DNA of 49,042 nucleotides from an uncultured Bacilli bacterium (GCA_947630865.1 CANRJE010000002.1:1-49042), one strand, 5' to 3'. Numbered from the stretch's first letter, positions 23,365-25,395 are shown. Program-made: numbers and translations. Notes: generated by a model from the sequence alone, not told the origin.

Positions 23365-25395
23365 ATGAAATTAAAATTAAGCTTTATGCTATTAATATCA
23401 ATCTTTATATTTGTAAGTCCAAAAATTTGTTTGGCTAAAGAAATAACGATTGATAATGTTAAACACAATGTAACATCAACTTTAAAAGGAGATGGATATA
23501 TTTATGATGCTAGTAAAAATGCAATTACTTTAACTAATGCTAATTTACAATCTATTAAAACACCTGATAATTTAACTGTTGTTCTTGAAGGAGAAAATAC
23601 GTTAAATATTAATAAAACTTCTACATCAGTTGCAATTGAAGCTAAAAAGTTACAAATAGAAGGTAATGGCTCTTTGGATATTACTTCAAGTGGAAAGGGA
23701 ATAGCAGGAGAAACTATTTTTCTAAATGGTGGAAATATCAAAATAAATTCATCAGGTATCCCAATTGTAGTTACCTCTGGTGACATTGTAATTTATAATA
23801 CAAATTTAGAAGTTGATACATCTAAAGTAGTTATTCAAGCAATTAGTGGAGGAACATTTTTAAATAATGTTAATATTCTTGTTAAAAATGCACTTAATGT
23901 TTTTAATACTCAATATTTATACTTAACAGATACAAAATTAAATGTTTTAAAATGTACAGATTTTATGTTTTCTGATTCTATTGAAATTTATGTAAATCGT
24001 TATAGTAAATTAAATATTTATACAGAAAATGGTAATGTTTCTAAAAAGAATTTTATATTAGATAAAGGACTTTCAATCTCAACTAGTGAAGATGGAACAA
24101 CTTGGAAGAATTTTTCATCATCTAATTCCGATAAATATTTAAAAATAGAAGGTGAGAGTAAAACTTTAACCGAAGAAGAATTAAAAAGATTAGAAGATGA
24201 ATTAAAAGAAAAACAACAGGAATTAAAAGAATTAGAAGAAAAAATAAAAAGAAAGGAAGAAGAATTAAATGCAAAAGAAGAAGAATTAAGAGAAACTGAA
24301 AAATCTTTAGAAAATAAAAATACAGAACTAACTTCTAAAGAAAAAGAATTAAATAATCGAGAAGATTTTTTAAATCAAAAGGAGGAAAGATTAAATACAA
24401 AAAGTCAAGAATTAAAAGATAAAGAAGATGAGTTAAATAAAAAAGAAAATAGTTTAAGAGAATTAGAAAATAAACTTCTAGAAAAGGATAATACTTTAAC
24501 AGAGAAAGAAAAAGACCTTTTAGAACGAAGTAAAAGTTTAGATGATATTAAAAAAAATCTTCAAACTAGGGAAGAGGAGTTATTAAAAAGAGAAAAGAAA
24601 TTAGATGAAGATGAAAAAGCTTTAAAACTTAAGCAAGAAGAACTAACAAGAAGAGAAAATAATTTATTACCAACAGAAGAAGAATTAAACAATCGAGAAA
24701 AACTATTAACTGAAAAAGAAAAAAGATTATCTGAAGAATCCTCGAATTTAAATGCTAAAGAAAAAGAATTAGAATATTTAGATAGAGTTTTAAGTACTAA
24801 AGAAGCAACTTTAAAAGGGAGAGAAGAAGATTTAAATAACTGGTTTACTTCGTTAGATGAAAAAGAAAATTCAATTGATTCTAGAGAAAAAAATGTAACT
24901 TCTAAAGAAAACGATTTAAATAATCGTGAAACTAATTTGAATACACGTGAAGATTCTTTAAATTCTCGTGAAAATACTTTGAAAAGTAATCAAGAGGATT
25001 TAGAAAATAGAAATTTAGAATTTAATCTAAAAAATGATAAATTAGAATATGATCGAAATGTTTTAGAAAATGAAACAAAAGATTTAAATAATTTAAAAAG
25101 TAATCTTCAAGATGTAAAAAATGATTTGTTAAATAAAAATGATGAAATAAATCAAAAACTTTTATTATTAGAAGAATTTGAAAAAAGTTTGAATAATAAG
25201 GATTTAGAACTAAAAAGAAAGGAGGAAGATTTAAGTTATGTTAAAACTACTTATAATGTTAATTCAAAACCTCTTAATACTATAAAAGAAGAATCATCAA
25301 ATAAATTTATATTTATACCTTTTATACTATTATTAATTGGTTTAATTATAGGAATATATTTTTTCTTAAAAAGAAATAGGAGGGTTTATGGATAA
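23365..25395 (+). CDS. tail-anchored surface protein: signal peptide, beta-helix-like head, about 360-aa heptad stalk, C-terminal TM
   Basis: Signal peptide ending CLA|KE. Repetitive I-x-I/GG-N head motifs. 51 consecutive heptads. C-terminal FIFIPFILLLIGLIIGIYFFL followed by KRNRR. Confidence 0.8.
   Translation: MKLKLSFMLLISIFIFVSPKICLAKEITIDNVKHNVTSTLKGDGYIYDASKNAITLTNANLQSIKTPDNLTVVLEGENTLNINKTSTSVAIEAKKLQIEGNGSLDITSSGKGIAGETIFLNGGNIKINSSGIPIVVTSGDIVIYNTNLEVDTSKVVIQAISGGTFLNNVNILVKNALNVFNTQYLYLTDTKLNVLKCTDFMFSDSIEIYVNRYSKLNIYTENGNVSKKNFILDKGLSISTSEDGTTWKNFSSSNSDKYLKIEGESKTLTEEELKRLEDELKEKQQELKELEEKIKRKEEELNAKEEELRETEKSLENKNTELTSKEKELNNREDFLNQKEERLNTKSQELKDKEDELNKKENSLRELENKLLEKDNTLTEKEKDLLERSKSLDDIKKNLQTREEELLKREKKLDEDEKALKLKQEELTRRENNLLPTEEELNNREKLLTEKEKRLSEESSNLNAKEKELEYLDRVLSTKEATLKGREEDLNNWFTSLDEKENSIDSREKNVTSKENDLNNRETNLNTREDSLNSRENTLKSNQEDLENRNLEFNLKNDKLEYDRNVLENETKDLNNLKSNLQDVKNDLLNKNDEINQKLLLLEEFEKSLNNKDLELKRKEEDLSYVKTTYNVNSKPLNTIKEESSNKFIFIPFILLLIGLIIGIYFFLKRNRRVYG

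Follow-up and report, generated by a model that had tools for sequence, protein, structure and literature searches.

In trimeric autotransporter adhesins (TAAs) such as YadA, UspA1, SadA, and Saa, a surface stalk holds an adhesive head off the cell; the a positions of its heptads are hydrophobic, the d positions are often polar, and its length differs between relatives (Hartmann, Lupas; PMC13580157). Surveys cited in that paper put the polar share of coiled-coil core residues at about 25%, with a and d each about three quarters hydrophobic. In TAA stalks, 5% of the a positions and 45% of the d positions are polar, a few proteins come near 50% polar core residues overall, and coiled coils with polar cores are often predicted to be disordered (PMC13580157). 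Fibrillar adhesins in general have an adhesive-type tip domain, an extended stalk, and a surface anchor, and their stalks are usually tandem domain repeats (PMC9210967). Here, we analyze a gene at positions 23,365 to 25,395 of a 49,042-nucleotide stretch of DNA from an uncultured Bacilli bacterium of the gut with a small genome (GCA_947630865.1 CANRJE010000002.1:1-49042; we call this whole stretch the window). Its product belongs to a new, unannotated family of fibrillar surface proteins, and its stalk, built of heptads with a single leucine, is apparently an extreme and undescribed form of the coiled-coil stalks of bacterial adhesins.

Two other kinds of fibril or spacer are relevant. Streptococcal M and M-like proteins are sortase-anchored, dimeric coiled-coil fibrils with non-ideal heptads. 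The M proteins form a parallel coiled coil of about 50 nm with many destabilizing core residues and with in-frame variation in repeat length. The known ER/K helices consist of about three quarters E, K, and R and avoid a hydrophobic seam.

On balance, we favor the reading that the gene encodes a genus-specific fibrillar surface protein with a Cthe_2159-like head, a parallel coiled-coil stalk, and a C-terminal anchor, which is co-expressed with comEA-comEC. The gene and its parts are as follows (AF2 is AlphaFold2, and pLDDT is its predicted local distance difference test).

23365..25395, plus strand: whole stalk gene, 676 codons and a stop (signal peptide, beta-helix head, heptad stalk, anchor), from the list of open reading frames (ORFs)
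23365..23436, plus strand: signal peptide, residues 1–24, expected cleavage after C-L-A, read from the sequence
23437..24150, plus strand: head, residues 25 to about 262, predicted right-handed parallel beta-helix, divergent Cthe_2159-like domain
24172..25251, plus strand: helical stalk, in frame, residues 270–629, about 360 residues
24172..24654, plus strand: distal stalk segment, residues 270–430, 23 heptads, AF2 helix, length differs between species
24655..24705, plus strand: hinge, residues 431–447, around a conserved Pro436 motif, pLDDT below 50 at model residues 170–180
24706..25251, plus strand: proximal stalk segment, residues 448–629, 26 heptads, AF2 helix, near-constant length
25252..25305, plus strand: linker with a decayed sorting motif, residues 630–647, from the C-terminal tails and the alignment
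25306..25368, plus strand: C-terminal hydrophobic helix, residues 648–668 (21 residues), AF2 helix at model residues 390–409
25369..25395, plus strand: basic tail KRNRRVYG and stop, overlapping the Shine-Dalgarno sequence and start of comEA

We translated the gene and set out residues 269–627 in sevens. This gave 51 consecutive heptads with zero stutters or stammers (a positions at residues 273–623), and the repeated position was Leu in 45 of them, Ile in three, Val in one, and Phe in one. A sequence-only reading of this DNA had described the same unbroken register and the same mostly leucine seam, and the computation reproduces both. That reading placed the stalk at 24170–25245, which needs a small correction: 24170 is the second base of codon 269, and the in-frame stalk is 24172..25251. 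If only hydrophobicity is considered, then the in-register run is 53 heptads (residues 273–637), of which the final two (Tyr630 and Leu637) lie beyond the predicted end of the helix at residue 629. Over this 53-heptad run, the a position is 100% hydrophobic (Leu 89%), b is often Asn (32%), d is Lys (42%) or Arg (23%) in 65% of heptads and hydrophobic in 21%, and e is usually Glu (57%). This agrees with the earlier description of Lys or Arg at the +3 position in about two thirds of the heptads, usually followed by Glu. The stalk is E 20.7%, L 17.5%, K 15.1%, N 12.9%, D 6.7%, R 5.9%, S 5.9%, and T 5.6%, so the abundance of Asn, Ser, and Thr was also noted correctly. The Asn at b does not form an N-glycosylation sequon: b=N is followed by x and then by K/R, hence not N-x-S/T.

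The heptad pattern is real, and chance falls far short of explaining it. When the stalk residues were shuffled 20,000 times, the longest in-register run averaged 3.7 heptads and never exceeded 11; given that 22.8% of the residues are hydrophobic, 53 successive hydrophobic residues would arise with a probability of about 1e-34. Elsewhere in the 1.35-Mb genome, no open frame comes near such a run (the runner-up has 15 heptads, in a more hydrophobic sequence).

A canonical coiled coil has a seven-residue core periodicity and is hydrophobic at both a and d. The stalk has the periodicity over its whole length, with no phase break in 51 heptads, and it has the hydrophobic a without the hydrophobic d (100% versus 21%; d is 12–37% hydrophobic in the orthologues). 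The earlier claim of one hydrophobic position per heptad does not hold uniformly along the stalk. In the gene under study, d is hydrophobic in 4–5 of the last 10 heptads (40–50%) versus four of 35 in the middle of the stalk. Most orthologues are similar, with a hydrophobic d in 4–5 of the 10 final heptads versus 1/41 to 6/37 in the middle; the lowest of these values is from locus L015 (the G011 orthologue), with one hydrophobic d in 41 consecutive heptads.

To find orthologues, we used the head as the query. A word-indexed protein search with the head gave no match, so the orthologues were drawn from whole genomes. There is one orthologue in 19 of the 22 genomes of the genus, we found none in 14 other genera of the family, and the query gave one marginal match elsewhere in the class. 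Searching 299 other genomes of the class for the stalk (six candidates scored per genome) yielded no stalk-like match at E ≤ 1e-12. With RNase III as the query, a search of genome contigs produced no confirmed relative. One of the orthologues is on record as "hypothetical protein [Bacilli bacterium]". The orthologues range from 427 to 946 residues, and the head, the heptad consensus, and the anchor are common to all of them. The L-N-x-K-E-x-x heptad and its phase are kept in the orthologues of these 19 of 22 sister species, and the preferences at a, b, d, and e are alike in eight long orthologues.

By Viterbi phase tracking, the stalks have about 15 to 89 in-phase heptads, and most of the 19 orthologues have no register break within the stalk. 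The longest perfect runs are 89 heptads (G018) and 59 heptads (G011). All of the length changes are multiples of seven (stretches of 56, 63, and 133 residues are duplicated, and gaps in the alignments span 7 or 21). Because the phase is unbroken between head and linker in almost all of the 19 species and every length change is a multiple of seven, we argue that there is selection for a continuous seam. In one orthologue (L012, in G022), a 60-residue segment within residues ~277–393 is repeated exactly, offset by 56 residues (eight heptads), which is a very recent in-phase expansion. The suggestion that the number of heptads varies was borne out between species but not within one species-level cluster, whose 15 listed members are all identical in length. 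The documented variation is thus between species. (Metagenome contigs are unreliable for measuring length at the strain level, as they are short pieces at about 4x depth with short-sided joints.)

The length changes fall on one side of a conserved proline. In seven long orthologues, the Pro hinge lies 173–201 residues from the C-terminal end of the stalk, versus 58–429 residues for the part on the head side, which implies a near-constant proximal rod (about 26 heptads) and a distal rod that expands. The short orthologues, with 22–24 heptads, have about the length of the proximal rod alone. In our proposed mechanism, the hinge, about 26 heptads (~27 nm) from the anchor end, would separate these two rods and might emerge at the surface of the wall, and species would alter the distal rod by whole-heptad duplications that set the reach of the head.

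A similar heptad occurs in other proteins. When we searched a database with the stalk and anchor, we found eight proteins at E ≤ 1e-10 (P0151–P0158, from ENA assemblies). Most of these have a signal peptide, a transglutaminase-like domain (PF01841), 41–63 uninterrupted heptads, and a transmembrane helix with a short tail; one is instead a ubiquitin hydrolase (UCH) with 27 heptads. Their heptads have Leu at 80–94% of a positions, Asn at 42–59% of b, Lys or Arg at 69–85% of d, and Glu at 75–90% of e, and L-x-P-K-E heptads occur. The transglutaminase-like proteins thus resemble the stalk protein in having a signal peptide, a globular domain, a long run of heptads with a=L, b=N, d=K/R, and e=E, and a transmembrane helix; they differ in having a PF01841 head and a cytoplasmic tail after the transmembrane helix. 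Compared to shuffles that preserve the composition at each position, their alignments to the stalk score z = 0.5–1.7, while true orthologues score 3.0–5.7. Because these scores match those of position-preserving shuffles, we consider the likeness to be convergence, or at least not demonstrable homology, and neither homology nor horizontal transfer between the stalk and the transglutaminase-like proteins is supported. The look-alikes are on single-gene contigs of about 3 kb, and since a sister match carries a UCH domain, they possibly come from microbial eukaryotes. As judged from the heptads, the convergence points to a single structural solution for a membrane-anchored stalk.

To predict the structure of the stalk, we ran AF2 on residues 262–676 as a single chain (predicted template modeling score, or pTM, of 0.24). 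The model has helices at residues 270–430 and 448–629, mostly with pLDDT of 85–96, and a low-confidence break around Pro436 at 431–447. Pro436 occupies heptad position c, and the phase of the heptads carries on through the hinge. The hinge motif is R-E-x-N-L-(I/L/V)-P-(K/T)-E-E-E-L, and the Pro is common to the seven long orthologues. The structures that match the model with low root-mean-square deviation (rmsd) are lone helices, each about 160 residues long, of lamin, NudEL, and tropomyosin, which suggests that the model is extended rather than a hairpin. We rejected a helical hairpin that turns at Pro436, given arms that are unequal and variable (58–429 versus 173–201 residues), the continuous phase through the Pro, the pTM of 0.24, and the single-helix matches. 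The earlier estimate that the head is held about 50 nm from the membrane is arithmetically correct, but the stalk is not a single unbroken rod. Comparing the stalk to the Protein Data Bank (PDB) gave no match either with Foldseek or by sequence. The matches of the stalk to Pfam and NCBIfam models (RNase_Y_N, SMC, FlbB, PgrA, and HmpF) are far under the family cut-offs and are compositional coiled-coil matches, not homology.

These results bear on the idea that the stalk is a flexible and largely disordered low-complexity spacer, whose periodicity would be a by-product of 21-nt tandem duplication in an AT-rich genome. Tandem Repeats Finder does report periods of 21, 42, and 63 nt, the G+C content (18–32% over the window and 22–25% around the stalk) favors the codons of Asn, Lys, and Glu, and the frequent prediction of disorder for polar-core coiled coils (PMC13580157) fits this idea too. 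However, the DNA repeats are degenerate (62–80% matches) and cover only parts of the stalk. The longest exact repeat in the stalk protein is three residues, with no recent internal duplication, yet the hydrophobic stripe is intact through all 51 heptads. Since the DNA repeats are degenerate and there is no recent duplication in the protein, the regularity is maintained and not just left over from a recent expansion. The pattern is also kept across 19 species whose heads are just 30–39% identical, it arose in an unrelated family, and pLDDT is above 89 over most of both helices. We consider a disordered spacer to be highly improbable.

Another possibility is that the stalk is a monomeric, stiff single alpha-helix (SAH-like), with intrahelical salt bridges (an acidic g with Lys or Arg at d four residues on, and Lys or Arg at d with an acidic g three residues on) and with a leucine stripe that is partly exposed or used for transient contacts. 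Within 372 residues, we counted 37 acid-to-base pairs at i+4 along with 35 base-to-acid pairs at i+3, mostly from g to d and from d to g, although this is sparser than in ER/K repeats. Lys or Arg at d is associated with an acidic g, the single-chain model is confidently helical without a partner, and the same heptad is found in the UCH protein, which is cytosolic and in which a spacer would also make sense. However, the stalk contains just 42% E+K+R, along with 27% N+S+T+Q and 17.5% Leu, all of it in a single stripe. A leucine every seventh residue over 50–89 repeats, with a phase that every insertion or deletion has spared, is a requirement of a packing seam and not of a lone helix, and there are canonical a/d heptads at the anchor end. 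A monomer of this kind is unlikely. As for a typical ER/K single helix, we rule it out because of the E+K+R, Leu, and Asn contents (42%, 17.5%, and 12.9%). Like the ER/K helices of myosin VI/X and caldesmon, the stalk is a long helical spacer of high charge that has many pairs of opposite charge from i to i+4, if less densely than in ER/K repeats, but its 13% Asn and its strict leucine stripe set it apart, and it lacks their defining composition. Overall, our results support a stalk that is long, real, and helical. As was first proposed, it is not a textbook a/d coiled coil, nor is it an E/K/R single alpha-helix, given the E+K+R content and the continuous leucine stripe.

The charges around the leucine stripe suggest how the helices might associate. 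Among 430 heptads from eight orthologues, Lys or Arg at d co-occurs with Glu or Asp at e (odds ratio 4.2), with an acidic g three residues on (odds ratio 2.5), and with an acidic g four residues back (odds ratio 2.0); these ratios are descriptive, as the heptads are related. On a helical wheel, d and e would flank the leucine stripe on opposite sides, so that a parallel pair would place d against e', while an antiparallel pair would place e against e' and d against d'. From this geometry, we infer that the coupling of Lys or Arg at d to Glu at e favors a parallel arrangement. Most probably, the stalk forms a coiled coil that is parallel and homo-oligomeric, and a dimer seems more likely than a trimer. 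In such an assembly, layers of Leu at a would alternate with layers of Lys or Arg at d, whose aliphatic parts would pack on the neighboring Leu layers and whose charges would pair with Glu at e of the partner helix and with the acidic g of the same helix. The last ~10 heptads, beside the membrane and with more canonical a/d cores, could nucleate the assembly and set its register.

In a trimer or a higher oligomer, the Lys or Arg layers might instead point inward and hold anions or water, as the polar layers of TAAs do. The TAA stalks have a similar imbalance between a and d (5% versus 45% polar) and bury their polar residues with ions (PMC13580157), and Leu at a with a partner that is not beta-branched does not specify dimers. 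But a trimer would bring three like charges together in about two thirds of its layers over 50 heptads, which would be costly. Also, TAAs mainly have small polar residues (N, Q, T) at d rather than K/R, and the tight coupling of Lys or Arg at d to Glu at e fits outward snorkelling toward e' better. The other features of TAAs are absent: instead of a C-terminal outer-membrane beta-barrel, we found a single hydrophobic helix with a basic tail, and the envelope genes (sortases) are of the Gram-positive type. A trimer or higher oligomer of this kind seems quite unlikely to us.

The stalk fits best at the far end of a known trend toward polar d positions and is not a new fold class. About 79% of its d positions are polar (in one orthologue, as many as 40 of 41 consecutive ones) and none of its a positions are, as compared to about 45% at d in TAA stalks. 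Where TAAs use N, Q, or T to hold ions, this stalk has Lys or Arg with Glu at e; it has no stutters, neck, or connector elements, and its anchor is a single membrane helix or a sortase signal rather than a beta-barrel. The likeness to M proteins is in the fibril as a whole, which is about 50 nm long and of the Gram-positive type, with a C-terminal sorting signal and in-frame repeat variation. M proteins have no beta-helix head, their binding sites are along the coil, and their heptads are irregular with register shifts, whereas this stalk has perfect phase and a Leu/Lys core. We found no sequence relation between the stalk and M proteins (it has no sequence match in the PDB).

A broader claim is that L-N-x-K-E-x-x defines a distinct and recurrent class of coiled coil, with a Lys/Arg-Glu ion-pair layer at every second core layer, that is stable over 40 or more heptads and that evolved independently as a length-tunable stalk in bacterial adhesins and in transglutaminase-like membrane proteins. 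We advance this claim tentatively, as its chance of being correct falls somewhat short of even.

The head was predicted with confidence. Folded with an alignment of 19 orthologues (A1), the AF2 model has a pLDDT of 91.5 and a pTM of 0.84. In a wide search with VIA-align, the top match among 48,161 chains was 4PHB, which is Cthe_2159 from C. thermocellum (Z = 19.2, rmsd of 3.0 Å over 188 residues), and the second match was the binding region of an L. reuteri SRRP, a serine-rich repeat protein (5NXK/5NY0; Z = 13.9). Both are right-handed parallel beta-helices, as the head is predicted to be, and the beta-helix-like head of the sequence-only reading is therefore confirmed in the model. The suggested comparison to carbohydrate-binding beta-helix families succeeded by structure but not with the Pfam model: the head gives E = 0.004 and 16.9 bits for PF14262, versus a gathering score of 25.8 bits. 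A scan of the full-length protein gave no match to PF14262, six of the 19 orthologue heads matched it (best E = 3e-5), and Foldseek with the head against the PDB gave weak beta-helix hits.

As cited in 10.1101/401869, both cellulose and polygalacturonic acid are bound by Cthe_2159 (Close et al. 2014). Domains of the Cthe_2159/SRRP type, which are found in fibrillar adhesins, bind cellulose as well as pectic or acidic glycans (10.1101/401869, PMC9210967), and a related cluster of solenoids has been singled out as an adhesive domain of fibrillar adhesins (PMC9210967). By analogy with these relatives of the head, the stalk protein may be an adhesin. It is predicted to have all three parts of the fibrillar adhesin architecture, namely an adhesive-type tip domain, an extended stalk, and a surface anchor. 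It differs from the described proteins in that its stalk is a heptad helix; its head, besides being under the PF14262 gathering score, has a coiled coil beneath it in place of serine-rich or Ig-like repeats.

A profile of the head matched 2,852 proteins, many of which are giant multi-repeat surface proteins. Of seven remote relatives of the head that we scanned, three have PF14262 and others have Beta_helix, SLH, or Por_Secre_tail domains. P0001–P0005 and some other matches to the head profile have 3,400–6,200 residues with 15–24 tandem beta-helix segments that resemble the head by descent; presumably, they act as giant adhesins on the surface of other gut bacteria.

At the other end of the stalk, the anchor varies between orthologues. 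The sequence-only reading proposed a transmembrane anchor with a KRNRR stop-transfer signal. The hydrophobic stretch and the basic tail are indeed at the extreme C-terminus (residues 648–668 and KRNRRVYG), as expected for a sorting signal, but we identify them as a degenerate sorting signal whose tail doubles as the ribosome site and start of comEA. The xPKT(x)D motif that should precede the hydrophobic stretch is absent from the gene under study, which has N-T-I-K-E-E-S-S-N-K where orthologues have N-N-I-E-N-P-K-T-Y-D. In at least eight orthologues and several further relatives, N-I-E-N-P-K-T-(Y/F/L/N)-D precedes the hydrophobic stretch. The genome contains five sortase genes (PF04203 matches), two of which pass the class B model TIGR03064 (183 and 163 bits versus a cut-off of 153.75), and those of its proteins that are sortase-linked or anchored at the C-terminus carry VPKTFDN, VPKTD, or VPITD near their ends, ahead of a hydrophobic stretch and a basic tail. 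Given the NPKT motifs of the orthologues and the sortases and similar tails in the genome, the C-terminus of the family is a cell-wall sorting signal of this lineage's type. The sorting motif of the lineage is apparently unusual, with Asp where Gly is usual (G000 contigs C5 [1479-aa ORF], C27, C22, and C20; loci L021–L023).

At the N-terminus, the signal peptide noted previously is evident as a positive n-region, a hydrophobic core, and C-L-A followed by K-E; a P-x-(I/V)-C-x-A-K motif at the signal peptide is conserved in alignment A1. We propose that the protein would be exported by Sec and its signal peptide cleaved, which would leave the head at the far end and the membrane helix holding the stalk at the cell. 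Judging by their tails, the gene under study and its closest relative, which lack the sorting motif, probably encode proteins that remain anchored in the membrane. In many sister species, NPKT-Y/F-D would instead attach the protein to the wall.

The stalk gene lies between a gene for a prepilin-type protein and two competence genes. The neighboring features are as follows.

22647..23123, plus strand: prepilin-type gene, upstream of the stalk gene (PF07963 N_methyl, E = 2.2e-7; TIGR02532)
23301..23329, plus strand: promoter-like site, TTGACA, 17 nt, TATGAT (11/12 positions; a consensus match only)
23337..23348, plus strand: near-palindrome TTGACCGGTTAA, between the -10 hexamer and the ribosome site of the stalk gene
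25388..26164 and 26133..28169, plus strand: comEA and comEC, translationally coupled downstream genes (PF12836 HHH_3 and SLBB in ComEA)

At every locus in the genus with flanking sequence, the order is rnc, prepilin gene, stalk gene, comEA, comEC, and the comEA-comEC order downstream of the stalk gene is kept in all 19 species. The stalk gene ends with ..AGG AGG GTT TAT GGA TAA, and these last codons contain both the Shine-Dalgarno sequence of comEA (AGGAGG, 25378–25383) and its ATG (25388–25390). This overlap with the start of comEA, or a close variant of it, is present in all 19 species: A(A/T)GGAGG..ATGGATAA is conserved in at least 12 of the 19 orthologue gene ends, and a tail of K/R-(R/W)-R-x-x-G, then the stop, with the GGAGG/ATG overlap, is conserved at loci L002–L020. 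Because the same bases carry the ribosome site and start of comEA, the conserved basic tail is under a double constraint. There is no terminator-like site from the stalk gene to the end of comEC. We propose that the stalk gene would be transcribed from its own promoter-like site together with comEA-comEC and translationally coupled to comEA. The interpretation in the sequence-only reading was largely right, with four additions: the hinge, the origin of the anchor as a sorting signal, the canonical heptads near the membrane, and the coupling to comEA.

The stalk gene is absent from 18 other genera of the family, where comEA usually follows an ftsW/rodA-like gene and pilin genes are close by in some cases. 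As the other genera have no stalk gene before comEA, the stalk gene is a genus-specific insertion at the head of the comE operon. At loci L026–L043, the ftsW/rodA-like gene upstream of comEA encodes about 385 residues in most of these genera, and one or two prepilin genes are near several of them. The comEA match of G023 has an in-frame TGA.

The location of the gene raises the possibility that its product is an accessory of DNA uptake, made together with ComEA and ComEC and extending beyond the wall during competence, where it might, for instance, bind surface glycans or clear them for the pilus and DNA. The invariant order of pilin, stalk gene, comEA, and comEC fits this idea, as do the overlap of the stop with the comEA start, the comEA ribosome site inside the last codons, and the lack of a terminator-like site between the genes. 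On the other hand, other genera of the family have comEA-comEC without the stalk gene, so DNA uptake does not need it. Since the linkage never varies within the genus, the co-occurrence is uninformative. The orthologue heads are acidic to neutral (pI 4.1–7.0), which disfavors DNA binding by the head. We know of no competence system with such a stalk component. A role in DNA uptake is, in our judgment, quite improbable, and a claim that joins the ionic-layer class of coiled coils to a stalk protein that is a true part of the DNA-uptake apparatus of the genus is less likely than the claim about the class by itself.

Several points weigh against our preferred reading of a fibrillar surface protein with a parallel coiled-coil stalk. 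With Leu as a, the classical g-e' pairs are mostly like-charged (five attractive and 14 repulsive). The stalk contains 13% Asn and 11% Ser+Thr, which have low helix propensity, and its net charge is -24. The core is thin, with one buried Leu per 1 nm, so the stalk might have only marginal stability in its middle part or be monomeric there. With repeats of this kind, AF2 is prone to draw helices in any case. The association tests between heptad positions are inflated by kinship among the heptads and among the orthologues. The sortase motif is missing from the gene under study. Finally, the head is under the Pfam cut-off for PF14262, it is the likeness of the fold that suggests an adhesin role, and no ligand-binding residues were identified.

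If the stalks do form coiled coils, then they are a natural test of how thin the hydrophobic core of a long coiled coil can be and of whether ordered Lys-Glu layers can stand in for half of it. They combine pure Leu at a with near-pure Lys or Arg at d over tens of heptads, up to 89 heptads (~90 nm), with no phase error. Changes in length by whole heptads, on one side of a conserved hinge, also make them a simple natural system for studying the reach of an adhesin. By analogy with its relatives, we offer a first functional reading for a conserved "hypothetical protein" of a lineage from the guts of herbivores: a head of a glycan-binding type on a long stalk, made together with ComEA and ComEC.

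The near-palindrome TTGACCGGTTAA is kept upstream of most of the 19 orthologues, and its position suggests that it may be an operator for some regulator. The genome contains no further exact copies of it, and we rejected a regulon on the basis of this lone exact copy. There is no RNA run among the runs listed with matches to the gene. Short contigs that are identical to the gene are found in rabbit gut metagenomes (two samples of one study, which may include the source sample of the window), and there are partial matches to the gene in other gut studies.

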